DNA from: a plasmid
Sequence record: NZ_CP084013.1
DNA: 64,000 bases
Strand: one strand, 5' to 3'
Part shown: positions 809 to 60,830 of the stretch, in pieces
Layout: each line of letters opens with the position of its first letter
Numbering within the stretch: the first letter of the stretch is position 1
The notes under the pieces: generated by a model
Told to the model about the DNA's origin: nothing
The model's database searches: none
The model's input: only the letters and a program-made list of their open reading frames with translations
Made by a program: the position numbers and the translations under genes

Positions 809-2243
809 CGTCTCCTATCATGCGTACAACGCGGCCAGTCCGATGAACAATCGGAAGCTCGCGGAGTTCGACTGTCTGTTGCCGGTATGGCGTCGCGGCC
901 TCGTGTTTGCAATGGGCGGTTGGACGCGCGTATTGACATCCGGCGGGGAGCTGCCCCGTTGGATGGATACTAAGAGTTTCCCCGGCTGGCTGTCCCAGCG
1001 CCAGTGGGATTCCGTGACGCGTCAGGCCAAAGGCGCGTTGGATTCTTGGATGGAACTCAGGGAGACCGAGTTTCGCCGCGTCGTCAACGGCAGTAGTCTA
1101 AGCCCGGACATGAAGCGGGAACTGTACGACATCAACCGGCGGCATGAATGGTGGAAGCCGGAGGATGATGAGGCTCACCGCATGGCGCGGCGCATCATCA
1201 AACACCTGCGCAAACAAGTCCCGTTCCCCCGCATGGGACGTTGCCGGACGATGAGCATGGACGGGAAGATAGCCCGAGTCGAGGATGCCATGAACGCCGT
1301 CCATTATCGTTGGTGGGTCACGGTCAGCACCTTGGACAGGGGGCGTCCGATTCGCATCCCGATAATCGCCGACCCCCGGTTGGAAGAGAATCTGGCGGTC
1401 AACAACGAGACCTTGGCGAATCATCTGCAAGCCACCCACACCCCGGAGGAGGGGTGGACGTTCCATGTGATGACCACCAGCCCGAAGGCCACGCCCAGAC
1501 GGACGGGCGAGATTATCGGCGTTGACTGGGGAGTGCAAAGCCTGTTCGCCACCAGCGACGGGCGACTCTTGGGACTCGGACTGTACGCATGGCTGTCGGA
1601 ACGCGACGTGGAACTCGAAACGCTCACCAAGGAGCTGAACCGTAGCCATATCCCCTGCCGGGAATCGAAACGTTACCGTCGGTTGAACAAACGAATACGC
1701 GACCATGTGACCAACGAGACCAACCGGCTGCTCAACCGGCTGGGCGAACAGGACATCAAGGAAATCGTCGTAGAGGAACTCGACTTCCGCCACGGCGGAC
1801 TCACCCGCAGGATGAACCGCATCGTCAGCCGTGCGGGACGCAACGCGGTCAAGCGCAAACTCCAAGACCTGCAAGACAACAAGGGCGTCACCGTCACCAA
1901 AGTCAACCCCGCATACACATCGCAGGAATGTCCGAACTGCGGATGCACCGACCCGCGCAACCGCAAAACCAGAGACCTGTTCCGCTGCATCTGCTGCGGA
2001 TACACGCTTCATGCCGACATCAACGCCAGCCGCAACATACGTGCGAGACGTTCTCGCAGGGATGGATGGCGTTTCATCGGCAGGAAGCAAATCCTCGCCA
2101 CGCTCCGCAACGAGCACGGTGAGCGATGCTCCCGCCCCGACCATCATCGGGACGGGAGACACGTCGCCAAGAGTGCGACTACCCCACGGAACGCGAAAAC
2201 GTCACCGGAGGTCAAAGCTCCTAACGGAATAAAAAACCATTAG
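792..2243 (+). CDS. tnpB: IS607-family TnpB (RNA-guided nuclease-like OrfB)
   Basis: C-terminal zinc ribbon 'CPNCGCTDPRNRKTRDLFRCICCGYTLHADINASRNI', which combines the RuvC-III motif with a CxxC...CxxC ribbon. The ATG at 792 overlaps the tnpA stop by 17 nt. Confidence 0.8.
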   Translation: MPSKRNVSYHAYNAASPMNNRKLAEFDCLLPVWRRGLVFAMGGWTRVLTSGGELPRWMDTKSFPGWLSQRQWDSVTRQAKGALDSWMELRETEFRRVVNGSSLSPDMKRELYDINRRHEWWKPEDDEAHRMARRIIKHLRKQVPFPRMGRCRTMSMDGKIARVEDAMNAVHYRWWVTVSTLDRGRPIRIPIIADPRLEENLAVNNETLANHLQATHTPEEGWTFHVMTTSPKATPRRTGEIIGVDWGVQSLFATSDGRLLGLGLYAWLSERDVELETLTKELNRSHIPCRESKRYRRLNKRIRDHVTNETNRLLNRLGEQDIKEIVVEELDFRHGGLTRRMNRIVSRAGRNAVKRKLQDLQDNKGVTVTKVNPAYTSQECPNCGCTDPRNRKTRDLFRCICCGYTLHADINASRNIRARRSRRDGWRFIGRKQILATLRNEHGERCSRPDHHRDGRHVAKSATTPRNAKTSPEVKAPNGIKNH

Positions 2244-2454
2244 AAAGCACACTCTGGAACGATGGGTCGATCGGAACGTACCGGCCCGGCATGTTCCCGC
2301 CGCAGTCGCAGCGCACCGTGTACCGTTCCGTCGTATCGTCCACATCATCGTAGATTCGTGGCATGCCGCCGCAGAACGGGCATGGCTTCAACGTCTCGTG
2401 TTCGACCGTCGCATGCCTGTTGTTGCGGGAATCCCAGATTCCTGTGGCCTCCAT
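2221..2454 (-). CDS. small zinc-finger protein (Lar-like CPFCGG motif), hypothetical
   Basis: 77 aa containing 'CPFCGGMP' and 'CDCGG'. Last gene of the minus-strand operon; its 3' end overlaps the end of tnpB. Confidence 0.35.
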   Translation of the reverse strand: MEATGIWDSRNNRHATVEHETLKPCPFCGGMPRIYDDVDDTTERYTVRCDCGGNMPGRYVPIDPSFQSVLSNGFLFR

Positions 2455-3461
2455 CAGAGCCTGCCCTTCCGCCTGTTTCGTTCCAGACAGTCATCCATCG
2501 CCCGTCCGACCTCCTCATCCGTGATGCCGAACGCCGTGATCAGGTTGCCGACCGTCTGCAACACGTCGGCCAGTTCGTCGAGCATGGCCTGGCGACGCTG
2601 GTCGCGCACATGGCCTATCCAGCCGGCCTTCGCCTTGTCCCGGTCGTCGCCAAGCTCGCCGCCCACGTTCACCCCGTAACAGGCGAGACAGTCCGCATGA
2701 TCGTCGAACTGGTCGCCGATGCCGCTCGGATCGGTCGGATCGCAGGCCTTCAGGTATTGCTTGCATGCCTCCACGAGTTCGGCCGACTCTTCGAGGTTCT
2801 TGACGGCCAGCCACTTGTCCCGTTCCAGACGGCCGAACGATCGGACATCCGGGAGATGCACGGTGCGGCTCCCCTCATGGATCGGAGTGGAATCATTGGA
2901 GGCCGGCTTCCATGGAATCTCTTCGACGGTTTGGAGCGAATACCGGGTGTACGGGCCGTGCGCGGACGGTTCCCCGGAATCGTCGTCAAGCTCTTCGGCC
3001 GTCCATCCGCGATCGGCGATCCACGGCTTGCACCAGTCAAAGTGAGTGCCTTCATCATCCATCGGCTCGAAGTCGCAGCGTGCCCACGGGCCCCATTCGT
3101 GGAGCATCCTCACGGTGATGCCGGAACAAGGCGCGCATTCCCATTCGCGGCCCTCTTCCTTCAGCCGGAAGATGTGCCCGTCGATCCCGTCGCCGCCTGT
3201 GATGAGCCAGAGCGTGCCGTTCGCGTCGCTCCAGCATCCCGCCGTGTCGGGCATGGCGGAGAACCCGGCCCTGGTCAGGTCTATCCCCTTCCATTCGGTT
3301 CGCTGGAACGGTGCGGCCTGTTCCAGCTGTCCCGCGGACAGGATCTCGCCGGTGTCCGCATCCCGTATCGCGAGCTCGCCGGATTCCATGCAGGCCACGA
3401 CCGTTTTCTCGTTCGCATCCCGCCACAGTCCGGGCGCATCCGGTTTCTCGCGGCCGCTCAT
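2454..3461 (-). CDS. two-domain protein with a C-terminal MazG-like nucleotide pyrophosphohydrolase domain
   Basis: The C-terminal 'EELGDDRDKAKAGWIGHVRDQRRQAMLDELADVLQTVGNLITAFGI' matches the MazG/HisE-type all-alpha NTP-PPase pattern. The N-terminal domain is Cys-rich ('WECAPCSG...CDFEP...HFDWCKPW') and of unknown function. The start ATG at 3461 overlaps the upstream stop in an ATGA arrangement. Confidence 0.55.
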   Translation of the reverse strand: MSGREKPDAPGLWRDANEKTVVACMESGELAIRDADTGEILSAGQLEQAAPFQRTEWKGIDLTRAGFSAMPDTAGCWSDANGTLWLITGGDGIDGHIFRLKEEGREWECAPCSGITVRMLHEWGPWARCDFEPMDDEGTHFDWCKPWIADRGWTAEELDDDSGEPSAHGPYTRYSLQTVEEIPWKPASNDSTPIHEGSRTVHLPDVRSFGRLERDKWLAVKNLEESAELVEACKQYLKACDPTDPSGIGDQFDDHADCLACYGVNVGGELGDDRDKAKAGWIGHVRDQRRQAMLDELADVLQTVGNLITAFGITDEEVGRAMDDCLERNRRKGRL

Positions 3462-3685
3462 TCGGCCTCTCCCATCTGTTCGTCCAGCCATTTTTCGGCC
3501 TCGTTCAGGGTCGAGCATTGCCTGCGAATACTGTTCTCCACGCCGTTCGGCTGGCGGACGAGCAGTATCGCCGTATATCCGCCGACCATGCTCGCCACGA
3601 CGCCGCCGCGCCGGGTGCGGGTGCGTCTGGGATGCTCCCACATGCGCGGCAGTCCGACTCGCGCCTCATGCTCGATCAACATCAT
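3458..3685 (-). CDS. hypothetical small protein
   Basis: 75-aa ORF, translationally coupled to both neighbours through overlapping stop and start codons. Confidence 0.35.
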   Translation of the reverse strand: MMLIEHEARVGLPRMWEHPRRTRTRRGGVVASMVGGYTAILLVRQPNGVENSIRRQCSTLNEAEKWLDEQMGEAE

Positions 3686-4149
3686 GCGTCCCCCTCTTCC
3701 TTCGGATAGTCGGCTCCGTCACGGTCGAGATACTTGCAATGCAGTCGCGTGGATTCGCGTATGGGCAGGGAGTCCACCCAATGCTCGATTGTGGCCCTTT
3801 TCGCCCGGTTCAGCCATGTCTCATACGCATCCGACGCCTCGCCCGACGTCAATCCGACCGCGTCGCGCAGCATGGCCGTGACCGCCATGCAGACCATGTC
3901 GTCGGTCAGCGGGAGACCGCCCTCCACATGCTTGGGGCCGATATCCACCGATAGGACGCCATCAGGCATCGAACCGTCAGGCAGGAGCGCCGTTTTGAAG
4001 AATTCGTTGGGAATCCTGACTCCAACTGTCCCGTCCTGTAGGGTGACGGCCTTTCCGGTCAGCTCCGTGCCGTTCTCGTAATGGATGGTGGCAATAGGAT
4101 TCTCGTCTGGTTCCGTCTCGTCTGTGACTTGCCTTTTTCCATCGTTCAT
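3682..4149 (-). CDS. hypothetical protein, paralog of the ORF at 8995-9405
   Basis: 155 aa. An AAAGGA RBS lies before the ATG. It shares the 'GLPLTDDM' block and overall architecture with the ORF at 8995-9405. Confidence 0.5.
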   Translation of the reverse strand: MNDGKRQVTDETEPDENPIATIHYENGTELTGKAVTLQDGTVGVRIPNEFFKTALLPDGSMPDGVLSVDIGPKHVEGGLPLTDDMVCMAVTAMLRDAVGLTSGEASDAYETWLNRAKRATIEHWVDSLPIRESTRLHCKYLDRDGADYPKEEGDA

Positions 4150-4838
4150 CTTGTTTGTCCTTTCGATTCGATTGAGTTCAGATCGTACGATTGTTCGCCA
4201 ATCAGTTCGCGCAGCTCATACATCTTGTTTTCGATATCATGCCGTCGGGCTTCCATTCGGCTGGCATCCTCTTTGCTGAAACGCGGTAGCCGAGAAAATG
4301 ATTGGGTTAGTAGATTCTCCGTCTCGGCGAGCTGACGGCGGGCCACGCGCAGCAAGGTCCGGGATTCGATGAGACGGGAGGCGTTGATGGCCGGCACCGG
4401 TTCGTCCGGCTGGTCTTCCACAGGTTTGACCTTGACGAAGCTCGGTTGGGCGAACCGGTAGCCGGAATCGCCGAACACGTATTCCAGGCCACGGCCGCCG
4501 GCCCGGATGCCCAATACGCCGTCAAACGGTTCCAGCGGCCCCTCGAACGCCCCACGCCGTCCCCCGAATTCGACGCGCACCCGGACTCCTTCCAGCTCGT
4601 CCAGAAAACGACCCTGCCAGAACGGCTCCTCGGGACGCAGACGCACATGGTCGACTTCTTCCATGAGCCGCACGCCATCGCCCTTGTCCTTCCGTGTGAA
4701 GACGCATGTATCGTCTACCGTCAGATAATCCCCAAAACGGACGAACGGGCCGATATGCCGGCTGCCGTCCGAGGTCACGGCCGCGGCCTCCAACCCAATC
4801 AGATCGTCGAACAGGTAACGGTCCCACCATTCAGACAT
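4146..4838 (-). CDS. hypothetical protein
   Basis: 230-aa ORF in the operon, overlapping both neighbours by a few nt. Confidence 0.5.
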   Translation of the reverse strand: MSEWWDRYLFDDLIGLEAAAVTSDGSRHIGPFVRFGDYLTVDDTCVFTRKDKGDGVRLMEEVDHVRLRPEEPFWQGRFLDELEGVRVRVEFGGRRGAFEGPLEPFDGVLGIRAGGRGLEYVFGDSGYRFAQPSFVKVKPVEDQPDEPVPAINASRLIESRTLLRVARRQLAETENLLTQSFSRLPRFSKEDASRMEARRHDIENKMYELRELIGEQSYDLNSIESKGQTR

Positions 4839-4947
4839 GATCCTGCCTTTCCTCCTCCCTGTGGCGCCATGCGTCGCAGGCGGCGCATCTGTCGTTTTCG
4901 CCCAAGGCCGCGTATGCGCCGCAATCCGTGCAGAATCCTCTGTGCAT
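4831..4947 (-). CDS. putative small zinc-ribbon peptide
   Basis: 'MHRGFCTDCGAYAALGENDRCAACDAWRH', with an AAGGAGA RBS 7 nt upstream of the ATG at 4947. Small, so this is a low-confidence call. Confidence 0.3.
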   Translation of the reverse strand: MHRGFCTDCGAYAALGENDRCAACDAWRHREEERQDHV

Positions 4948-5330
4948 CAGCGAATCTCCTTGAGTTCGGCCTTCAACCTGCGGACGACGAGCAGGCCGTG
5001 CCCGCCGTCCCATTCCACCGGCCATTCCCCGTCGCGGCCGTCGCAAGGTTCGGCCGGTCCGACAATCCTCAATTCAGGCAATTGACTTCCTCCCCACGGC
5101 TGAAGCCGGTGGTCTTACGGCGCGATTCGATAAGTCCATCAGAAAAATCCTTCCAAAACGGATAGGCCGAGGAACAACAGCCACGAGACCAGCTCCGAGA
5201 ACATGATCGTGAACGCGATGGCCGCATGCAATCGTCCTAACCTCAGGTCTTTCGATCTGAGCAGCGGCGCCAGAGGAATGAGTGCGAGAAGATTGGCTCC
5301 GACCCACATGATTCGAACATAGCCCATTGC

Positions 5331-6191
5331 TTAATCCCATTTCGGTTTGATGGTGGCGACGTGGCGGGCGACGAGGCCGGTCGGGTCGATGATGGTCACG
5401 TCCAGGGCGGTCCGGTTGTCTTTCAGGTATTTCCCGTAACGGACGGCGAACCGTTCGAGTATCTTCGGATGGTCCGCGAACATGGTCAGATCCACGAAGA
5501 ACCGTCCGTGCGGCAGCCGGCCGAGCGTACGCGCGGTGATCGCCCACAGTTCGCGTCCCGACCGTTCCAATGCGCCGGTCCCGTTGGCGACGACGGGGCG
5601 CAACGGGAGGAACCCCGGATGCCGGTCCGCCCGGTCGAGCAGGCCGAGCCGGTCGGGGAACCGCATGCCGGTCAGGTTCACGCCATAATCGACGGGCCTG
5701 TCGAGCCGGCTATGGTAGGCGAACAGGAATTGGGTGCCGAGCAGGCGGATGCCGGTCGCATCCAGGAGAACATCGCCTGTCAGGGCGTTCAGCGTGTTCG
5801 CGAGACGTTTCGCCGTGTTCTCGCCCGGCGTCGGCTCCGACGGGATGATGAGGACCCCATCCGGGGTCTCCGCGATGAAGCAGGCGCATCCTTTGGCCAT
5901 CTCCATGGGTTTCATGCCGTCGGCGATCGGGTTCGGCTCCCACTTGTCGCCATCCGTGAGATGACGTGCGCAGGATTCCAGATCCGAGAGGAGCGCGTCC
6001 GCGTTCATGTACGTGTCGTACAGGCGTCGCCAATGAGCGCGAACCTGTTCCATGATCTTCGGATCGTCGCAGGACAGATGGCCTATCCCGTTCTCCGCGT
6101 CGTTGATGGCGGCGGCGAGCCCGCGGCGGGCGACCGCCAGCATCATCCTCGCCTCGGTGTTCTGTTCGAGCGTGAAATCATGACCGTTCAT
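5331..6191 (-). CDS. hypothetical protein
   Basis: 286 aa, with a strong AAGGAGGA RBS before the ATG at 6191. No recognisable motif. Confidence 0.55.
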   Translation of the reverse strand: MNGHDFTLEQNTEARMMLAVARRGLAAAINDAENGIGHLSCDDPKIMEQVRAHWRRLYDTYMNADALLSDLESCARHLTDGDKWEPNPIADGMKPMEMAKGCACFIAETPDGVLIIPSEPTPGENTAKRLANTLNALTGDVLLDATGIRLLGTQFLFAYHSRLDRPVDYGVNLTGMRFPDRLGLLDRADRHPGFLPLRPVVANGTGALERSGRELWAITARTLGRLPHGRFFVDLTMFADHPKILERFAVRYGKYLKDNRTALDVTIIDPTGLVARHVATIKPKWD

Positions 6192-6489
6192 TCGGGATCT
6201 CCTCCTTGATGCATTCGGGGCATTGCCCGTCCTTCCAGCCGGCCGGATCGATCATGATGTTCGTGCAGGTCGAGCATTCGGGCAGCCGGTGCGCCGGGCA
6301 GTAGTGCATGTCGCGTTCCAATTCGGGATGCTCGTCCTTGTACAGGATCTGCCAGCCGTCATCCTTCGCGTCGAACAGCAGATCGTCCTCGTACGCATAC
6401 CAGTCGTTGATCCGTTGTTCGCAGTTGTGGTCGTCGCATTCGAGCCTGAACCAAGCGCGGCTGTCAAACGTTTCTTTGATTCTTGCCAT
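6178..6489 (-). CDS. hypothetical Cys-rich (zinc-finger-like) protein
   Basis: Start 'MARIKETF' at 6489 is preceded by a GGAGG RBS. Contains 'CDDHNC...HYCPAHRLPECSTC...CPEC'. Confidence 0.45.
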   Translation of the reverse strand: MARIKETFDSRAWFRLECDDHNCEQRINDWYAYEDDLLFDAKDDGWQILYKDEHPELERDMHYCPAHRLPECSTCTNIMIDPAGWKDGQCPECIKEEIPNERS

Positions 6490-8251
6490 CAAGCCTCCGT
6501 TCCTTTGCGTGCGTCCGACGGTATGCGTCGCTCGGCGAGACGTCGGGAGTCGCCGGGCCTTCGACGGCCAGCAAGTCGCCGACATATTCCATATCCACGT
6601 CGCGTTCGTTGAACGCCTTGCGCGTGTACACAAGACGGTTCATGTTGGCGTGGGACAGTACCCAACGCGCTTTCTCCGCGCGTTCGGAATGGTCGTTGTC
6701 GGCAATCGGCCTATCATGCAGGACGGTACGCTTCAACATGGTTCTCAAGCTTTTGACCTCAAGATAATAGTCGGATTTCAGCTTGAACATGTACCCGTCG
6801 GCGTCATACACCACAACGCCCTCACGTGTGGAATCATGACGCTCCTCGTCCAACATGCTCCACAGTGCCTCCCGCTCCTCGTCGGATTGGAAGACGCCCA
6901 ACACCTCCGGCCGGGCGAAGAACCCGTCCATGTCAATCAGCTTGTCGGCGTCATGGTCGATATGGAAGTCCACCGTGTTCCCGATGGCGTGCAGGAACAC
7001 GAGCTGAGACGTATCATACTTGACGATGTGACGGTCGGACTCTTGGTCGATGACCTCGAACGCCAACGTCACGTCGGCATCATGGACGATGTTCCACAAC
7101 GCCTGTTCCTGACCGCCGTCCAACGTCTCCTTGAAGAGCCGTTGTATGAGATACGAGTAGTCGGTCTGTCCGCTCTTCGACCAGAAACGCCACGAACCGT
7201 CTCCGCGTGCGGACACCAAGCCGAGGAACCCGTTCTCCTTGCGTTCCACGCGCACCGGGAACTTGAGACGCTTGTCGATGTTCTCGCGGGTGGTCTGCTC
7301 GTTCTCCCCGAGGTTGAAGAACTTCTCGAATCCTCGTGCCACGACCCTGCCGTTCCCGTCGAGGAACAGGCCGCGCGCCTTGCTGGAATACTCGTCCCAA
7401 CGCTGGTTCTTGAACGCGTCACGACTGAAGTTGCAGGCGTACACGTCGGTCTCGCCTTTGACCGGACGGACGTGTACGTTGTCGGAGTCGCGCATGATGT
7501 CAAGCAGGTTGCTCCCGTCGGCGGAGAAGTCGGCGAACCCGTCTTCGGTCGTATGCGCACCCTGTTCCAGCCACTTCGAGTAACGGTCCAGTGTCCACTT
7601 CACGCCATCCTTGAGCGACGGCATGTCCAAACGGACGGTACCGGTCGCATCACGCCCATTGCTTGAGGCCGCAGTGTAACCCATTTCGGCGTCGTCCACG
7701 GTGCGGGCATTGCCGTCCCACAGCAGTCCCACGTCAACCATCACCGTCTCCCCCATTGGGTTCATACGGTACACGCCGTCCGTCTTCATGACGCGAACGT
7801 TGACCCAACGGCTGTCACGTTCAAGGCACCCATGCCAAGTCTCATACTGGGTGCGCAGATACTTCTCCGGCACACGGTCGCTCTCGACGCGGATCCTGTT
7901 GCGTTCCAGCAGTTCGTCCAACGGCGTGTTGAATGTGAAAGTCTCAACATGCGCCTTGTGACGGACGGCAATCTGCACCTCGTCCACGCAGAAACGCGGG
8001 TTGACATGCTGGGAGTCGCTGATGACATTCACGCCTTTGGCGAGCAGGTCGCTGATGATGGTATGCGCCTGACGGACGAGAATCCTGTTCAACTGTGGAT
8101 TCATGGTTTCATGCCATGCCTGACGGCCTCCCGCCATCATTTCACGCAAACCGTCCAAGCTGACGATTACCGTATTCGAATCGACATGCTTCCGCGCCCA
8201 AGTGCTCTTTCCCGAGCCGGGCAGTCCTCTAAGAATGGTCAAAGTGGTCAA
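6464..8251 (-). CDS. bifunctional polynucleotide 5'-kinase / ATP-dependent RNA ligase (T4 Pnk + Rnl-like), RNA repair enzyme
   Basis: N-terminal P-loop kinase 'LRGLPGSGKSTWARKH'. The central/C-terminal part carries nucleotidyltransferase motif I 'VERKENGFLGLV' (KxNG, the ligase lysine). Apparent TTG start at 8251. Confidence 0.75.
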   Translation of the reverse strand: MTTLTILRGLPGSGKSTWARKHVDSNTVIVSLDGLREMMAGGRQAWHETMNPQLNRILVRQAHTIISDLLAKGVNVISDSQHVNPRFCVDEVQIAVRHKAHVETFTFNTPLDELLERNRIRVESDRVPEKYLRTQYETWHGCLERDSRWVNVRVMKTDGVYRMNPMGETVMVDVGLLWDGNARTVDDAEMGYTAASSNGRDATGTVRLDMPSLKDGVKWTLDRYSKWLEQGAHTTEDGFADFSADGSNLLDIMRDSDNVHVRPVKGETDVYACNFSRDAFKNQRWDEYSSKARGLFLDGNGRVVARGFEKFFNLGENEQTTRENIDKRLKFPVRVERKENGFLGLVSARGDGSWRFWSKSGQTDYSYLIQRLFKETLDGGQEQALWNIVHDADVTLAFEVIDQESDRHIVKYDTSQLVFLHAIGNTVDFHIDHDADKLIDMDGFFARPEVLGVFQSDEEREALWSMLDEERHDSTREGVVVYDADGYMFKLKSDYYLEVKSLRTMLKRTVLHDRPIADNDHSERAEKARWVLSHANMNRLVYTRKAFNERDVDMEYVGDLLAVEGPATPDVSPSDAYRRTHAKERRLDGKNQRNV

Positions 8252-8271
8252 TTTCGAAGCCTTTCTTTACT

Positions 8272-8970
8272 TCAGTTCTCCTGAAACATGCGAACAAGTT
8301 CCACTTCGGACACGGGGCGCATGTTCCACGCGTCCAATCCCACGTTGATTTCGTTACGGTTCTTGAACTCATGGGGAGTGTTCGCATGGGTGTGACCGTG
8401 CAGCAATCGCATGCTCTCCCCCACTTGAGGAATCGCATACCGTCGAAGCTCCGACTTCGCCCAATTGGAAGCCACGTCATCCGCTGCCGGTAGGTCGAAG
8501 TCCTCACGCCATTGGAAATGGCAGAGGAACACGGTCATAATGGTTTCGCCGTCCGTGATGTCCGTCATGCCGATACGCCCGATTTCACCGAACGCCTCGG
8601 TCAAATCCTTGAAGCCCTTGCTCTTCCCGTACAGCACGTCGTCATGGTTTCCGAGAATCAGATGACGGTTATTGCGAGGACAGCGCAAGCTTTTGACATG
8701 CATAAGCGCCTGTTGAAGACTCCAAGCGCCTCCGCTGCATAGGTCCCCAAGAATGTAGAGTTCATCATTCGGACCTACGATTTCGTTGATATGGTCGGTC
8801 ACGTCCATGTCATGCCGGTACCAGTTGACGCAATCCTTGACCTGCATGTGGGCTTCGTTAGCCTGTTGCTTGATGGTATTGTCCGACGTGAATCCGGTTT
8901 TCGCATATCCCCGCAATGCGGCCACGAACGGGTGGGCGAAGTGGGTGTCGGAGGTGAAGTATTTAGTCAT
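8272..8970 (-). CDS. calcineurin-like metallophosphoesterase, putative 2',3'-phosphatase partner of the kinase-ligase
   Basis: Motifs 'FTSDTHFAH', 'LYILGDLC', 'LILGNHDD' and 'LLHGHTHAN' match the D-x-H, GD, GNHD and GH-x-H metallophosphatase blocks. AAAGGA RBS before the ATG. Confidence 0.75.
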   Translation of the reverse strand: MTKYFTSDTHFAHPFVAALRGYAKTGFTSDNTIKQQANEAHMQVKDCVNWYRHDMDVTDHINEIVGPNDELYILGDLCSGGAWSLQQALMHVKSLRCPRNNRHLILGNHDDVLYGKSKGFKDLTEAFGEIGRIGMTDITDGETIMTVFLCHFQWREDFDLPAADDVASNWAKSELRRYAIPQVGESMRLLHGHTHANTPHEFKNRNEINVGLDAWNMRPVSEVELVRMFQEN

Positions 8971-8994
8971 TGTCTTTTTCCTTTGAAAAGAAAG

Positions 8995-9405
8995 CTAGGG
9001 GAATAGGGGCTGTTCCCATCCCTTGGAATTCCGGACTACTTGATGGGGATGGGAACGGCCACCGCTTTCTTCAGGCCGTCCCGGTCTATCTGCCGCAGAT
9101 CCGTTTTCCTCGTCATCATCGTCAATCCTTTCTAAGCCTTTTCCTTCTCCTCGTTCGTGATCGATCATGTACGCCATGTCGTCGGTCAGCGGCAGCCCGT
9201 ATCCCACATGACTAGGCCGTATATCCACGAAGGTGATGTGCGGCGGCAGACTACCATCCGCGCGTTGCACAAGCATGGAAGCGGCGCCGCCCAACGAAAC
9301 AAGCAAGGCTCCCTCGTCGGTGATGACAGCCGGACCCGCGAGTTCGGCTCCGCTGTCATACCGGACCCGCAGCATCAGGTCTCCGTTTTTCTTCGGATTG
9401 GTCAA
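8995..9405 (-). CDS. hypothetical protein, paralog of the ORF at 3682-4149; first gene of the minus-strand operon
   Basis: Probable TTG start at 9405, 5 nt after an AAGAGGAGGA RBS. The longer ORF that reaches 9483 would run through the promoter motif and is unlikely. Shares 'GYGLPLTDDMAYM' with the ORF at 3682-4149. Confidence 0.45.
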   Translation of the reverse strand: MTNPKKNGDLMLRVRYDSGAELAGPAVITDEGALLVSLGGAASMLVQRADGSLPPHITFVDIRPSHVGYGLPLTDDMAYMIDHERGEGKGLERIDDDDEENGSAADRPGRPEESGGRSHPHQVVRNSKGWEQPLFP

Positions 9406-9420
9406 CGCTCCTCCTCTTTT

Positions 9421-9446
9421 TATGTGGACTTCTTCAGTATAACAAC
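9421..9446 (-). promoter_or_regulatory. conserved element motif (reverse orientation), putative promoter of the minus-strand operon 9405->2221
   Basis: The plus strand reads TATGTGGACTTCTTCAGTATAACA, the reverse complement of the TGTTATACTGAAGAAGTCCACATA-type motif. It sits about 15 nt upstream of the RBS for 8995-9405. Confidence 0.6.
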
Positions 9447-9462
9447 CATATTGTATTTTACA

Positions 9463-9486
9463 TGTTATACTGAATATGTCCACATA
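9463..9486 (+). promoter_or_regulatory. conserved element motif, putative promoter of 9516-10001 (divergent with 9421-9446)
   Basis: TGTTATACTGAATATGTCCACATA, 30 nt upstream of the ATG at 9516. Confidence 0.6.
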
Positions 9487-9515
9487 AAAAGATTGAAAGA
9501 GAAAACCAAAGGAAA

Positions 9516-10001
9516 ATGCAACCCATACAAGACGTCACAGACGCACGAAAGACCTACACCCTATACGAGTGTGAAAAATGCGGAAGCCTGCGACTCGAAA
9601 GATCCGGCAAGCCCATCACCAAGTGCGCCTACTGCGACAACCTCTCCCTAAAACAGAGATTCCTCTCCGCACTGATCTCCATCGTCCACGAAGCCACATA
9701 TAAAATCCCAAACCCAAACAACACCGGAATCGTCCAAAACAAGGCAGACACAAAACTGCCCGGGAGTGTCGTCCAAGTCTTCGTGGATAACCCGGAAACC
9801 TACTGCACAACGAAAATTCAGCTCGGAACCACATCCATCGACTACTCCTATGATTGCACATCAGGGGACATTCGTATCGTTGCGAAAAATTGGGATCCAT
9901 TCGACTTGGAAAATGCCGACCTCGGTACGGGATGGCATATCCGACTGCTGGTGCAGACATGGCGCAACGAAATTGCCAAGCGAATGGAACTGACGGCGTG
10001 A
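9516..10001 (+). CDS. hypothetical protein with N-terminal zinc ribbon
   Basis: 161 aa, 'CEKCGSLRLERSGKPITKCAYCDN'. AAAGGAAA RBS. Confidence 0.5.
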   Translation: MQPIQDVTDARKTYTLYECEKCGSLRLERSGKPITKCAYCDNLSLKQRFLSALISIVHEATYKIPNPNNTGIVQNKADTKLPGSVVQVFVDNPETYCTTKIQLGTTSIDYSYDCTSGDIRIVAKNWDPFDLENADLGTGWHIRLLVQTWRNEIAKRMELTA

Positions 10002-10783
10002 ACAACATCGACAGCATCGAAAACGCACTGGAGCAATTCCCCCAGCAACGCATCATTTCCGCATGGATAGAAGGAGACTACGCGCATGGTTTAGCGGCGA
10101 AGGACAACAAGCCCTCGCTTTGCGTCATCACGATGCCGCAGCCTTGGGAGATACTGCTCGGCGAAGCTCGAACGACTCAGAACATGCGTGATCTCGATAT
10201 CAGAATCCTCACACCTCTTTCTTATATCGACGGACTGCTCGACGGCCATCGTAGCCTGTTGGAATCGTTGACATTGCCAACCGAATGCTTTCTGCTGGAC
10301 GCCGGCTTCATTCGCGCCATCGAGCCTTTCGCCCATCGGTTGACCACCAGCAATGTCGTCAAGACGGCTTTGGATGACGCTCGCGGGAACCTGTCCGTTT
10401 TGCGGCACTGGCCGGGCATGAAGAGCGCGAAACGCAATAAATCCATGGCCGAGACCGCACGATTGCTGAACGGAGTACGTCATATCCAGTCAGGAACGGA
10501 AGCCTGGCCGTGTCTGCTGGATGCGGATGAAATCACGCTGCTCCGTCGCATCCGATTGCAGGGAATGAATCTTGCCGATCTGGAAAGAGACTATGGCCTT
10601 CTTGCAGATACCCGCAAAACGCCCCCTCTCCCCCCGTTGGAGCCTTATGTCCGCAGACAGATCGAAGACGTAGTTCTCGGATTGAATCGTCGAATCGTCA
10701 ACCGCGAGGCGGAATCATTTTCCGTCAAGAATCTGATACATGCCCTGCATGGTTTCGGAGACGGGATTACGGCTGATGCCTAA
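9959..10783 (+). CDS. hypothetical protein (start uncertain; alternative GTG at 9998 overlaps the upstream stop)
   Basis: A long ORF in a different frame from 9516-10001. The in-frame GTG at 9998 forms GTGA with the upstream stop, which suggests translational coupling. Confidence 0.4.
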   Translation: MAQRNCQANGTDGVNNIDSIENALEQFPQQRIISAWIEGDYAHGLAAKDNKPSLCVITMPQPWEILLGEARTTQNMRDLDIRILTPLSYIDGLLDGHRSLLESLTLPTECFLLDAGFIRAIEPFAHRLTTSNVVKTALDDARGNLSVLRHWPGMKSAKRNKSMAETARLLNGVRHIQSGTEAWPCLLDADEITLLRRIRLQGMNLADLERDYGLLADTRKTPPLPPLEPYVRRQIEDVVLGLNRRIVNREAESFSVKNLIHALHGFGDGITADA

Positions 10784-10946
10784 CCGAAAAGACTGGCAGC
10801 CCGAGGACACGCAAGTGGAGACCGCGGCTATGGCGCTACGTGCCCAGCAAATGCGCCTGTGGAATCTCGTCGAGGACAGTGCGACTGTCGACCGCTGCTG
10901 GCAGCAGAAACGGATTAAGGAATCGTTGAAAGGTCAGGACAATTGA
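10776..10946 (+). CDS. hypothetical small protein
   Basis: Its ATG overlaps the stop of the upstream ORF. 56 aa. Confidence 0.25.
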   Translation: MPNRKDWQPEDTQVETAAMALRAQQMRLWNLVEDSATVDRCWQQKRIKESLKGQDN

Positions 10947-11155: not shown

Positions 11156-11180
11156 TGCTATACTGAATATGTCCACATAA
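11156..11180 (+). promoter_or_regulatory. conserved element motif upstream of the exonuclease gene
   Basis: TGCTATACTGAATATGTCCACATAA, 25 nt before the ATG at 11205. Confidence 0.6.
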
Positions 11181-14192: not shown

Positions 14193-14220
14193 TTGTTAAA
14201 CTGAATATGTCCACATAACA
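14193..14220 (+). promoter_or_regulatory. conserved element motif
   Basis: TTGTTAAACTGAATATGTCCACATAACA, about 27 nt before the GTG at 14247. Confidence 0.55.
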
Positions 14221-42156: not shown

Positions 42157-42185
42157 CGTTATACTGAATATGTCCACATACAGTA
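42157..42185 (+). promoter_or_regulatory. conserved element motif
   Basis: TCGTTATACTGAATATGTCCACATACAG, about 22 nt before the ATG at 42207. Confidence 0.6.
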
Positions 42186-45139: not shown

Positions 45140-46625
45140 GGCTTGTCCCTGTCCAGCGGTAAAAGCGAGACATTCGTGATGATTGTCTCTCCCGCCTTTG
45201 ATTCCGTTTCCCCGAGGGGTTGCGGTGACGGAACATCATGGGATGGTTGGCTGCACCCCTGCGACGTCAAGCGTGTTGGCGTCGCACTGCATCACGGTAA
45301 GGTCGTAGCCTTTGTGACGCAGGTTCATCGCGGCTATCCGGTCGTCGTTCGACCGGTAGCCGCAGTTGCGGCAGCGGAACGTGTGCGTTTCCTTGTTGCG
45401 GTTCTTGCGGGACACGTATCCGCATCGGGGGCATGTCTGGCTCGTGTACGCTGGGTCCACTGCTATCGTGGCCTGCCCGTTGCGGGCGGCCTTGTATTCG
45501 ATGAACGAGCGGAGTTGGCTGAACGCCCACGAGACTTGCACGTAACGTTGTTGGACTTTCACGGTTTCCGCCGTATTGCGGATGCCTGTGAGGTCTTCGA
45601 GCGTGAAGAGCGTGTCCTTGCCGTACTGGTTGACGAGTGCCTTAGAGACCTGATGGTTGATGTCGGTCATCCAACGGTTTTCTCGACTGCCTATGGCTTT
45701 GAGACGTTTTCTCGCGCTGCGCGTGCCCCTGTGTTGCAACTGTTTGCGGAGTTCCTTGTATTTGCCGCGCCGGTGTTTCACCTCCTTCCCATCGTAGAAA
45801 ACGGTGCGCTCCCCGTCGTAGGAGGTAGCAAGGAACCGGATACCCAGGTCGATGCCGACGATGGTCTTCGGATGTTCCGTGGCATCCGGCGTTGGGATGG
45901 TGACGGGGATGAGCAGATGCCATTTGTCCCGCTTGCGGATGAGGCGTGCGGTTCCGAACCTCCCATGCCGGTATTGGTCGGGAATGCTGGCCCATTCGGC
46001 TTTCACTTTGATGCGCCCATCCATGACGGGGAGGCTGAACAGGCCTGTCTTGGTGGAGTACGAGTAGTCCCTGTTCCACAACAGGTCGGCACCGTCCGGC
46101 GCATACTGGGGTTTGATACTGTAATATGCTGGGATTTTCCTCCTCTTGCGCCTCTTCCCGTTCTTCTTACCTTTGCTCTCCTCGCGGAGGTTAGCGATTC
46201 GCGTGTGGATGGCCTTGTAGTTGGCGATGACCCGGCGTATCGCCGATTGGGTCATCTGCGCGAGCAGCCCATGGGTTTCGCGCAACTGGTGGTAGATGGC
46301 CTTGTTGATTTTCTTCTGGCTGAGCGTGTGCGTGGAGTCCACGTAGTCAGCCACGTCGTTGCAGCAGTCGGCGAACGTCGAACACAACGCTGCGAGAGCG
46401 TCCGCTTGCCGCCGTGTGGGCGATAGACGGACGCACATCGTCAACGTCAACTCAGCCATCAAACCTCCAATAAGACAAATAATATCATAAACTTAGTGGA
46501 AAGAAAAGTGGCGTTCACCCGCGACGACAAGCATCGCGGTACCCCGCCATAAACACTCATGGAATTGCCGAATCGCTGACTCTAGGAAAATGCCGGGTGG
46601 TTTTTACTTCCCGGCATTTTACCTG
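45140..46625 (-). mobile_element. solo-tnpB IS element (IS1341-like)
   Basis: tnpB only. An inverted repeat, AAAATGCCGGG...CCCGGCATTTT, at 46589-46622 flanks the 5' side. The omega-RNA region is expected between about 45130 and 45240. Confidence 0.6.
45236..46459 (-). CDS. tnpB: TnpB (IS605/IS1341 family)
   Basis: 'CPRCGYVSRKNRNKETHTFRCRNCGYRSNDDRIAAMNL' forms the zinc ribbon and RuvC-III motif. Confidence 0.8.
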   Translation of the reverse strand: MAELTLTMCVRLSPTRRQADALAALCSTFADCCNDVADYVDSTHTLSQKKINKAIYHQLRETHGLLAQMTQSAIRRVIANYKAIHTRIANLREESKGKKNGKRRKRRKIPAYYSIKPQYAPDGADLLWNRDYSYSTKTGLFSLPVMDGRIKVKAEWASIPDQYRHGRFGTARLIRKRDKWHLLIPVTIPTPDATEHPKTIVGIDLGIRFLATSYDGERTVFYDGKEVKHRRGKYKELRKQLQHRGTRSARKRLKAIGSRENRWMTDINHQVSKALVNQYGKDTLFTLEDLTGIRNTAETVKVQQRYVQVSWAFSQLRSFIEYKAARNGQATIAVDPAYTSQTCPRCGYVSRKNRNKETHTFRCRNCGYRSNDDRIAAMNLRHKGYDLTVMQCDANTLDVAGVQPTIP

Positions 46626-46649
46626 TTATACTGAATCTGTCCACATAGA
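46622..46649 (+). promoter_or_regulatory. conserved element motif
   Basis: TGTTATACTGAATCTGTCCACATAGAAA, about 32 nt before the ATG at 46681. Confidence 0.6.
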
Positions 46650-52362: not shown

Positions 52363-52392
52363 ACTTGTTATACTGAATGTGTCCACATAGAA
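52363..52392 (+). promoter_or_regulatory. conserved element motif; the downstream region lacks a clear intact gene
   Basis: GTTATACTGAATGTGTCCACATAGAAATG. The next recognisable coding feature is the tnpB remnant. Confidence 0.5.
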
Positions 52393-55976: not shown

Positions 55977-56062
55977 GGATGGTGGGCCGTGCGGCAAAGG
56001 CGCAGTCCTGCTAAGACTGTTGGGGCGGAAGTCCCTGGCGAGTTCGACTCTCGCACCATCCG
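55977..56062 (+). tRNA. tRNA-Ser (GCT), type II
   Basis: Acceptor GGATGGT/ACCATCC. Anticodon arm CAGTC CTGCTAA GACTG. Long variable arm. T-arm GCGAG TTCGACT CTCGC. Confidence 0.8.
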
Positions 56063-56179
56063 CTAGCCGATCTGCAGTGATAGGCCACGGGATAGGACCT
56101 GGAATCCAGTCAGCAAAACGGGTTGGATCGGCATGGCGGAACGCAGTCGGGCATACGTGTCCGATGCGTTCGCGCACAT

Positions 56180-57689: not shown

Positions 57690-57965
57690 CCAGCGGAAGC
57701 AACGGCGTCAACGCCACCCGATCCGGTTCGAACGTCTGACGGAACGGGAACGATGCTACGGTAGGTTCTCTCCATAACTGGGACCCGTAACCGTTGCAGC
57801 GCCCACTTCCGCTCATATTCTTGCGGAATATGATGTCAACGCCACCACCCGCCCGCTGCCATATTGGGGCGGAGTGGAACGATGGTCAAGGCGCAGGCCT
57901 GCACCTCAGTGGCCTGAACAGAACCGCCTCTCCAGCATCGTATCCGCAACACCGCTTCGTCCTTT

Positions 57966-58040
57966 AACGGTAGGATGCTCTGTTTTTTTTTGGAGTAATG
58001 CGGGTTCGAATCCCGTCGAAGCACGATGGGCCCAGTGGCC
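57966..58040 (+). pseudogene. tRNA-like element whose anticodon region is a T9 homopolymer (degenerate Lys-TTT-like or slipped)
   Basis: Acceptor GCTTCG/CGAAGC and T-arm GCGGG TTCGAAT CCCGT are present, but the anticodon arm reads CTCTG TTTTTTTTT GGAG. Confidence 0.35.
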
Positions 58041-60769: not shown

Positions 60770-60802
60770 TGGTTGTCGTTGTTTTCTTTCGATTTATGTG
60801 GA

Positions 60803-60830
60803 CGTATTTAGTATAACAAGTAAAAGAGAA
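60803..60830 (-). promoter_or_regulatory. conserved element motif (reverse orientation), upstream of the minus-strand gene 60101-60769
   Basis: The plus strand reads TTATGTGGACGTATTTAGTATAACAAG. Confidence 0.55.

Follow-up and report, generated by a model that had tools for sequence, protein, structure and literature searches.

A probable mobile two-gene RNA heal-and-seal cassette in a backbone operon of a pMP7017-family Bifidobacterium megaplasmid

Two adjacent genes on a Bifidobacterium plasmid (sequence record NZ_CP084013.1) raise the question whether they encode a complete RNA repair pathway, whether this pathway is part of the operon in which it is found, and what it might protect. The stretch of DNA analyzed, 64,000 nucleotides (nt) long, is called the window here, and all coordinates are positions in it. 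One gene encodes a metallophosphoesterase of 232 amino acids (aa), the other a fusion of a polynucleotide 5'-kinase and an ATP-dependent RNA ligase. Healing and sealing of RNA is a known answer to ribotoxins, as in phage T4 facing the anticodon nuclease PrrC and in the bacterial Pnkp/Hen1 system. To our knowledge, nearly all that is known of heal-and-seal repair as a counter-defence comes from phages. Our analysis indicates that region 6564-9165 is probably a mobile two-gene RNA heal-and-seal cassette which recombined into a backbone operon and serves the repair of ribotoxin damage. The cassette and its parts are as follows.

6564-9165, minus strand: inserted cassette of 2.6 kb, comprising the 3' part of gene 1 of the operon, the phosphoesterase gene and the kinase-ligase gene minus its last 33 codons
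8272-8970, minus strand: metallophosphoesterase, 232 aa, aq_1665 / PHROG 547 type
6464-8251, minus strand: kinase-ligase, 595 aa
7802-8251, minus strand: Pnk-type polynucleotide 5'-OH kinase domain (residues 1-150)
7517-7801, minus strand: variable beta-rich insert (residues 151-245)
6548-7516, minus strand: ATP-dependent RNA ligase (residues 246-568), an Rnl1/Trl1-type adenylyltransferase with a C-terminal module of ~70 aa
6464-6547, minus strand: foreign tail and stop codon (residues 569-595), overlapping the start of the next gene

The 595-aa protein matched the Pfam families AAA_33 (residues 4-137, E = 1e-20) and RNA_lig_T4_1 (PF09511, residues 291-496, E = 4e-34), above the gathering threshold. 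In PHROGs it matched families labeled 'polynucleotide kinase' and 'RNA ligase'. Sequence matches in the PDB were T4 Pnk, Pnkp1, the kinase domain of C. thermocellum Pnkp and PSTK for the kinase part, and T4 Rnl1 and fungal Trl1-LIG, the latter being the closest structure, for the ligase part. Residue conservation was read from an alignment of 29 kinase-ligase homologs with identities down to ~40%. The kinase domain contains the P-loop G9-LPGSG-K15-S; K15, D33, R36, N118 and R121 are invariant and R117 is nearly so. Residues K15, D33, R36, R117 and R121 align position for position with K15, D35, R38, R122 and R126 of T4 Pnk. A grouping with adenylate or shikimate kinases was tested against the predicted Pnk assignment, and the Pnk type was supported.

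The ligase had been predicted from the motif 'RKENG', and this call was borne out, with a nucleotidyltransferase fold and the further motifs present. Within motif I (R-K338-E-N-G), which aligns to the KENG of fungal Trl1, no variation was seen at K338, N340 and G341; positions 7238-7240 are the codon of the nucleophile K338. Motifs III (E399 in AFEVID), IV (E477-G478 in EGVVV) and V (K490/K492 in FKLKS) are invariant as well, and motifs IV-V align to residues 225-259 of T4 Rnl1. The same holds for R293 (ARGLF) and K310-F311 (EKFF), which align with Trl1 and with R54, K75 and F76 of T4 Rnl1, residues for which roles have been described (PMC6379707). A KxxR motif is located at the place of the 2'-phosphate site of Trl1.

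The AlphaFold2 (AF2) model of the 595-aa protein had a predicted local distance difference test score (pLDDT) of 87.7. The insert of ~95 aa at residues 151-245 is confined to forms of 545-595 aa and absent from homologs of 460-480 aa. It has no family match, and in the model strands were seen at 149-207 in a block with a pLDDT of ~84-92. For the C-terminal module of ~70 residues a profile search revealed no similarity to the C-domains of T4 Rnl1 or Trl1; only motifs IV-V matched. The T4 RnlA equivalog model TIGR02308 scored 44.4 bits against a cut-off of 242. With this score and only ~70 residues after motif V, assignment to the strict Rnl1 clade was not supported. The last residues, 569-595, are predicted to be disordered (pLDDT <50) and are shared by no homolog, most of which stop near aligned position 560-570. 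Homologs already carry the public labels 'RNA ligase', 'kinase' and 'AAA family ATPase'.

The 232-aa protein matched Pfam Metallophos (PF00149, E = 6.8e-8). All motifs for the binding of two metals (DxH, GD, GNH[DE], H and GHxH) are present and invariant in homologs, and the model (pLDDT 93) showed a metallophosphoesterase fold. The closest solved structure is aq_1665 of Aquifex aeolicus (PDB 1xm7), and the family is PHROG 547. Thus, the Pfam and structure comparisons which the original prediction had proposed for 6464-8251 and 8272-8970 upheld the ligase, Pnk and metallophosphoesterase assignments. Its claim that two adjacent genes supply the three heal-and-seal activities of phosphoesterase, Pnk-type kinase and ATP-dependent RNA ligase was confirmed at the level of domains and residues. 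From its conserved adjacency to, and fusion with, the kinase-ligase we infer that the 232-aa protein is an RNA 3'-end healing enzyme which converts 2',3'-cyclic phosphate or 3'-phosphate ends to 3'-OH. In contrast to this repair role, aq_1665 is a structural-genomics protein of unassigned function, and we know of no report which links it to RNA repair.

In the predicted pathway, the metallophosphoesterase would open and remove the 3'-terminal phosphate to leave a 3'-OH. Next, the 595-aa protein would phosphorylate the 5'-OH through its N-terminal kinase domain, which is of the Pnk type. Finally, the Rnl1/Trl1-type ligase domain would adenylylate itself at K338, transfer the AMP to the 5'-phosphate and seal the break.

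Judged by its domains, the chemistry of the cassette is that of T4 Pnkp plus Rnl1 and of bacterial Pnkp, spread differently over polypeptides. In T4 the kinase is fused to a haloacid dehalogenase (HAD) phosphatase with a DxDxT motif and the ligase is separate, whereas here kinase and ligase are fused and the metallophosphoesterase is separate. The beta-rich insert between kinase and ligase also distinguishes the protein from T4, and the C-terminal tRNA-specificity domain of T4 Rnl1 (~120 aa) has no counterpart apart from the dissimilar C-terminal module. Bacterial Pnkp (C. thermocellum; TIGR04075), compared together with the Pnkp1-Rnl-Hen1 complex, has the same set of modules, namely a P-loop kinase, a binuclear metallophosphoesterase and a lysine-adenylate ligase. 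Membership in the Pnkp family was nevertheless rejected: TIGR04075 gave 29.5 bits versus 750, in the kinase part only, the phosphatase is of another subfamily and the ligase of another clade. A Hen1 partner was not found, as methyltransferase families in Pfam, NCBIfam and PHROGs had no match among the operon products. Fungal Trl1 (LIG-KIN-CPD), the founder of the Rnl6 clade, differs by its reversed domain order, as the kinase comes first here, and by its 2H cyclic phosphodiesterase domain, in place of which a metallophosphoesterase is used. Its C-domain shows no sequence similarity to the C-terminal module here. The operon showed no Tpt1 gene.

Does the phosphoesterase really belong to this pathway? 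It might act elsewhere, on cyclic-oligonucleotide signals, alarmones or proteins, leaving the kinase-ligase to handle only breaks which already possess a 3'-OH. The tight and repeated linkage of the two genes makes this unlikely. In a survey of one-genome-per-species bacterial genomes the phosphoesterase gene was located directly upstream on the same strand in nine of ten complete Bifidobacterium/Collinsella loci (an eleventh was cut by a contig end) and ~1 kb upstream in the tenth (L024). It also lies upstream of the kinase-ligase gene in all 29 megaplasmid-type metagenomic contigs, and the pair was found on chromosomes at loci L002-L005 and, further, in L012. In P0083 (752 aa) and P0055 (826 aa) a single chain carries the phosphoesterase at the N-terminus of the kinase-ligase. 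In four phage-like IMG/VR contigs (L127-L130, 75-110 kb) with 38-40% identity to the window protein, separate adjacent open reading frames (ORFs) follow the order kinase, ligase, phosphoesterase. Altogether the trio occurs in three different gene orders.

Distant relatives point in the same direction, as they fill the same position with a Pnkp-like phosphatase domain. Among 254 cluster representatives found at E <= 1e-30, many are single chains of ~700-770 aa with the order kinase - Metallophos - RNA_lig_T4_1. In four sampled relatives the first ~280-400 residues matched the bacterial Pnkp profile (1e-19 to 1e-26). At the level of architecture, the earlier statement that the operon has no obvious resemblance to Pnkp has to be abandoned: its domain set is that of Pnkp, and single-chain relatives with this set are common. 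On this genomic evidence, kinase and ligase are as a rule accompanied by a metallophosphoesterase, either in the same chain or as a separate protein. The repeated linkage, the fusions and the phosphatase domain of the distant relatives suggest that kinase and ligase need a phosphoesterase partner.

The single-chain relatives deserve a description of their own. Loci L025-L093 (for example L038 1711-3906, L042 1735-3966 and L029 1660-3903) mostly encode ~730-750-aa proteins composed of a kinase, a lambda-phosphatase-like Metallophos domain and an Rnl1-like ligase, and belong to PHROG 8238. These genes stand alone in Lachnospiraceae, Bacteroides, Helicobacter, Flavonifractor and others. A search for Hen1 beside four of the ~740-aa relatives gave only unrelated neighbours. 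Judged by domain content, the family resembles a Pnkp analogue that works without Hen1; no characterization of it was found. In one member, P0293 (1069 aa), the phosphatase region gave an intein match below threshold. At five of the L025-L093 loci an ORF for an aq_1665-type phosphoesterase follows downstream, at a distance of up to ~150 nt in four cases.

Another arrangement was observed in loci L006-L008, where the kinase-ligase (P0018, 584 aa, 66% identity) has a gene for an R2K-clade ATP-grasp protein (6607-7656) in front of it and not a phosphoesterase gene. Genes for AAA_21/AAA_15 ATPases and for an EcoRI-type methylase lie on its flanks. The same ATP-grasp gene is present in the plasmids pMP7017 (locus L009, 3564-4610) and DS1566 p1, a few kb from the operon. 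In Streptomyces phages tblastn found RNA ligase and Pnk as separate nearby genes and nothing close to the fusion.

The relation of the pair to its operon was resolved by comparison with related plasmids. The window comes from a conjugative Bifidobacterium megaplasmid of the pMP7017 family which bears a tRNA array. Region 2221-9500 was ~94% identical to plasmid p1 of B. longum DS1566 (193 kb, locus L001) across the 64% that aligns; the alignment to pMP7017 of B. breve JCM7017 (190 kb, locus L009) was patchier. Products annotated for DS1566 p1 include RepA, a large protein that binds ATP and proteins with FtsK/SpoIIIE domains; ORFs of the window lie at matching positions. At 52.9-58.2 kb ARAGORN and Rfam detected 20 tRNA genes and a transfer-messenger RNA (tmRNA) gene; such an array has likewise been published for pMP7017. 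The predicted conjugative element with about 20 tRNA genes was thus recovered in the plasmid alignments and in the counts of both programs. An additional weak tRNA at 57953-58024 (29.6 bits) came from Rfam only, without an ARAGORN call, and tRNA-Ser(GCT) at 55977-56063 was called by ARAGORN and is not in the Rfam list. An Rfam scan of 2221-9446 yielded zero non-coding RNAs. Megaplasmids of the pMP7017 family occur in ~11.5% of B. longum strains and, according to metagenome mining, in ~10% of microbiome samples (PMC10832533).

A phage origin was rejected on the basis of the ~94% identity to plasmid records over the aligning region and of the description of pMP7017 as conjugative (PMC10832533). 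A nucleotide search of a phage collection returned a single 35-nt match only. IMG/VR files related contigs of 100-217 kb as viral. About 29 such 'viral' contigs (L095-L123, up to 217 kb) encode kinase-ligases 83-98% identical to that of the window, and at least L095 and L097 share backbone genes with it; these contigs probably represent megaplasmids of the pMP7017 family that were entered in a virus database.

The boundaries of the cassette became visible in the blastn alignment with DS1566 p1. Positions 2343-6563 aligned with 93.8% and positions 9166-10832 with 98.3% identity, with nothing homologous between them. At the cassette site DS1566 p1 carries ~1.05 kb that hold the 3' part of its gene 1 homolog along with two small hypothetical genes. 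The left junction (6563/6564) is located 100 nt before the stop codon of the ligase gene. In two related plasmids devoid of the cassette tblastn found only ligase residues 563-595. The disordered tail is foreign to the ligase because translation reads through into the plasmid backbone past the junction at residue ~563. The right junction (9165/9166) lies inside gene 1. Residues 1-80 of the gene 1 product are conserved and identical to the DS1566 p1 homolog up to GLPLTDDMAYM, whereas its last ~56 aa are unrelated, acidic and of low complexity. Gene 1 had no match in Pfam, PHROGs, NCBIfam or PADLOC. With a second gene of the operon (3682-4149) it shares 39% identity over 79 aa (E = 7e-14). Consequently, of the two GLPLTDDM paralogs originally proposed, that at 3682-4149 stands as a full-length gene, while that at 8995-9405 turned out to be a truncated chimera made by the cassette junction. 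The nucleotides encoding GLPLTDDM are common to both genes and are located ~10 nt from the junction; this stretch could have served as a recombination site.

The pair follows gene 1 in a string of twelve minus-strand genes which runs from a promoter motif down to 2221. Start codons were picked by ribosome-binding sites and by the annotation of DS1566 p1 from the Prokaryotic Genome Annotation Pipeline (PGAP). Besides the phosphoesterase and the kinase-ligase the string contains the following genes.

8995-9405, minus strand: gene 1, 136 aa, chimeric truncated 'GLPLTDDM' copy
6178-6489, minus strand: Cys/His-rich zinc-ribbon-like protein, 103 aa, backbone, no family match
5331-6191, minus strand: 286-aa protein, backbone
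5139-5327, minus strand: hydrophobic peptide, 62 aa, backbone, homolog at L001 10725-10913, no Pfam match
4831-4947, minus strand: small Cys-rich peptide, ~38-44 aa, backbone, AAGGAG ribosome-binding site, homolog in DS1566 p1
4146-4838, minus strand: 230-aa protein, in DS1566 p1, not in pMP7017
3682-4149, minus strand: second 'GLPLTDDM' paralog, full-length, 155 aa, no family match
3458-3685, minus strand: 75-aa protein, ATGA overlaps with both neighbours, annotated homolog in DS1566 p1
2454-3461, minus strand: MazG-like candidate, 335 aa
2221-2454, minus strand: Lar-family restriction-alleviation homolog, 77 aa

Seven junctions of the string overlap by 1-26 nt, three are gaps of 3-24 nt, and one gap of ~190 nt separates 5139 from 4947, so that translational coupling is not continuous. 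Of the eleven co-oriented and coupled ORFs described before, the co-orientation and the positions were retained, the count rose to twelve and the coupling is broken at the ~190-nt gap. PADLOC models gave no meaningful match to ten operon proteins; therefore the string is not a known defence system.

The conserved promoter motif predicted at the head of the string is real. The sequence TGTTATACTGAAnnnGTCCAC occurs eight times in the window against zero copies expected.

9424-9444, 9463-9483, 11156-11176, 14194-14214, 42157-42177, 46624-46644, 52366-52386 and 60798-60818: copies of TGTTATACTGAAnnnGTCCAC
9415-9492: divergent promoter region with two inverted motif copies, minus strand at 9424-9444 and plus strand at 9463-9483

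At least five of the eight copies sit ~30-50 nt 5' of an ORF start, and the copy at 52366 was seen upstream of the tmRNA gene and the tRNA array. In the divergent region the inverted arms measure 30 nt each, are 93% complementary and face divergent genes. The minus-strand copy at 9424-9444, which reads TGTTATACTGAAGAAGTCCACATAAAAAGAGGAGGAGCG-TTG, heads the gene string. A scan of 2000-9700 for -10 and -35 elements detected a sole minus-strand promoter-like site, at 9482-9455 in the same intergenic region. Dineen et al. described a 34-bp motif, AWAYATGYTATACTGAATATGTCCACATAAAAWA, which overlaps the -10 element and whose 19 copies on pMP7017 are predicted to drive ~56 genes (PMC10832533). The motif of the window is this published motif, and it is presumed to define a plasmid-wide regulon. 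The cassette would then be transcribed from the motif at 9424-9444 along with ten unrelated backbone genes.

Such co-transcription invites the view that all twelve genes form one RNA-repair or counter-defence system with every other product as a component. Their common orientation, the tight spacing and the one promoter-like site would fit, and the string ends in a Lar-type anti-restriction homolog, so that the operon may have an anti-defence flavour. Gene content speaks strongly the other way and makes a twelve-gene system very improbable. In DS1566 p1, which has no repair genes, nine of the remaining ten are undamaged and only Lar is split by an insertion sequence (IS); pMP7017 shares only four of the ten (those for the 103-aa, 286-aa, MazG-like and Lar proteins). 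The pair occurs in ~45 other loci without the other operon genes, among them the chromosomal copies. When window genes were looked for within 3 kb of the pair on the 29 megaplasmid-type contigs, 27 contigs showed none of those tested, and only two share the downstream genes. Gene 1, finally, is a truncated by-product of the insertion. The original prediction had regarded the other operon genes as possible new repair components, and this is contradicted by a 2.6-kb cassette missing from a plasmid that keeps the rest. As far as gene content can tell, the other ten genes are neighbours and not components of the repair cassette.

The pair itself is a mobile cassette, and this plasmid region seems to gain and lose RNA-ligase modules by exchange. 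The equivalent operon of pMP7017 (L009 11238-14010) resembles the one described here in plasmid family, 34-bp motif, the genes for the 103/106-aa, 286-aa, MazG-like and Lar proteins and the presence of an RNA ligase. It differs in encoding a ligase with a PHA02142 oligonucleotide-binding (OB) domain and PF09414, a HAD phosphatase annotated as cytidylyltransferase and an ASCH-domain protein instead of the kinase-ligase and the metallophosphoesterase. The combination of the PHA02142 OB domain with PF09414 is the Rnl5-like ligase architecture. The OB-domain ligase, HAD and ASCH set may be an alternative RNA-repair cassette; neither a ligase of this type nor the HAD or ASCH genes were found when searched for in the window. 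In B. pseudolongum (L002) a pMP7017-type ligase gene lies on the opposite strand beside the phosphoesterase/kinase-ligase pair. In L012 and L094, loci for which gene calls were available, a thymidylate synthase gene is located downstream of the pair. In L012 (10792-15359) the pair is followed by genes for a pentapeptide-repeat protein, the thymidylate synthase and a product with a weak match to the T7 RecBCD inhibitor Gp5.9; these surroundings suggest an anti-defence neighbourhood.

Several observations weigh against a repair cassette that works for this plasmid. The cassette is missing from all five complete relatives of the plasmid in the plasmid collection and is therefore dispensable for it. 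Its insertion bears scars in the form of the read-through ligase tail and the truncated gene 1. The same pair is found beside ordinary chromosomal genes in several bifidobacteria, which weakens a plasmid-specific role in counter-defence. No biochemical characterization of a bacterial Pnk-Rnl1 fusion was found in the searched literature. The first two points would also suit an inert passenger or a decaying recombination remnant with no function for the plasmid, as both junctions damage coding sequence and complete relatives manage without the cassette. Yet neither reading frame is interrupted, the full set of catalytic residues is retained and the foreign tail lies outside the folded domains. 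The exact variant belongs to a 99%-identical cluster with 483 member sequences in public data, and a 98%-identical copy in the same gene order was found on an 86-kb contig. Moreover, the cassette is situated directly downstream of a motif which overlaps the -10 element of six highly expressed pMP7017 genes (PMC10832533). We regard a mere passenger as most improbable, and would give equally little credence to a cassette that heals and seals nicks or 5'-OH/3'-phosphate ends of plasmid DNA, for example around conjugative transfer.

For the favored RNA-repair cassette, we infer from the domain content that the substrates are tRNAs or other translation RNAs cut by ribotoxins. Candidate ribotoxins would be anticodon nucleases of recipient immunity, toxin-antitoxin RNases and interbacterial toxins. 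The cassette would keep tRNA and other translation RNAs intact under such attack and would complement the tRNA array and the tmRNA of the plasmid. A counter-defence role during conjugative entry is plausible; it would fit the plasmid's tRNA genes and tmRNA, the co-transcribed Lar gene and the T7 Gp5.9-like gene near the pair in L012. A general role in ribotoxin repair is at least as likely as a plasmid-specific one. A bolder proposal, to which we attach only tentative weight, holds that the Pnk-Rnl fusion is a prokaryotic counterpart of the LIG-KIN core of Trl1, and that interchangeable ligase cassettes, tRNA array and tmRNA form a translation-protection arsenal for establishment in recipients whose immunity cleaves tRNA. 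The Trl1 part of it builds on Trl1-LIG as the closest structure, on the shared KENG and on the KxxR motif at the 2'-phosphate site. Across the family the ligase cassettes are Pnk-Rnl plus phosphoesterase here, OB-domain ligase plus HAD in pMP7017 and none in DS1566 p1.

Some of the neighbouring backbone genes could be assigned further. The 103-aa protein is 78-79% identical in DS1566 p1 and pMP7017, both of which are without the cassette. The 286-aa protein has 92% identity to a pMP7017 protein and 79% to its DS1566 p1 homolog; it and the 230-aa protein had zero family matches in Pfam, NCBIfam, PHROGs and PADLOC. The 4831-4947 peptide gave a weak Pfam double-zinc-ribbon match (E = 0.044). For the 335-aa protein the previous label 'MazG-like' is backed by matches at E = 0.01 only, to Pfam PRA-PH (16.6 bits, cut-off 21.3) and to PHROG 4856. 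In its C-terminal ~120 aa E224, E225, E228, E231, E296 and D299 (EExxE...ExxD) are invariant in 17 homologs, a signature weakly reminiscent of all-alpha (MazG-type) nucleoside triphosphate pyrophosphohydrolases. A PDB profile search with the 17 homologs came back empty. The family is confined to these plasmids, is conserved in pMP7017 and DS1566 p1 and has no precomputed Pfam domain.

The 77-aa product at the end of the string matched the NCBIfam model anti_R_Lar (TIGR03655) with 28.3 bits against a cut-off of 39.6 (E = 1.6e-6) and PHROG 599 (1.4e-7). It is 86% identical over 71 aa to the pMP7017 ortholog, which is annotated as Lar, and then diverges. The pMP7017 Lar gene is moderately transcribed (PMC10832533). 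The last ~10 residues of the window protein are replaced by read-through into an adjacent IS.

164-2252: TnpB-family (IS200/IS605-type) element with ORF 780-2243 on the plus strand, inserted relative to DS1566 p1, IS junction 2252/2253

The Lar gene of DS1566 p1 is interrupted as well, by another element (tnpA-tnpB) at a site further upstream; an IS has thus hit Lar in both plasmids.

The chemistry proposed for the cassette is known from T4 Pnkp/Rnl1, bacterial Pnkp and Trl1 and was to be expected. New is the combination of an aq_1665-type phosphoesterase with a Pnk-insert-Rnl fusion, a Trl1-like ligase and a swappable cassette on a conjugative megaplasmid. The pair provides the first functional lead for the widespread aq_1665 / PHROG 547 phosphoesterase family, and it draws attention to a large family of kinase-phosphatase-Rnl1 proteins of ~740 aa in gut bacteria that seems not to have been studied. 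If the cassette shields plasmid establishment from immunity that targets tRNA, conjugation would come under the phage paradigm, and the tRNA array of the plasmid would be explained otherwise than by codon usage. Should the tentative idea of a translation-protection arsenal hold, it would be the first counter-defence of this kind for a plasmid rather than a phage.

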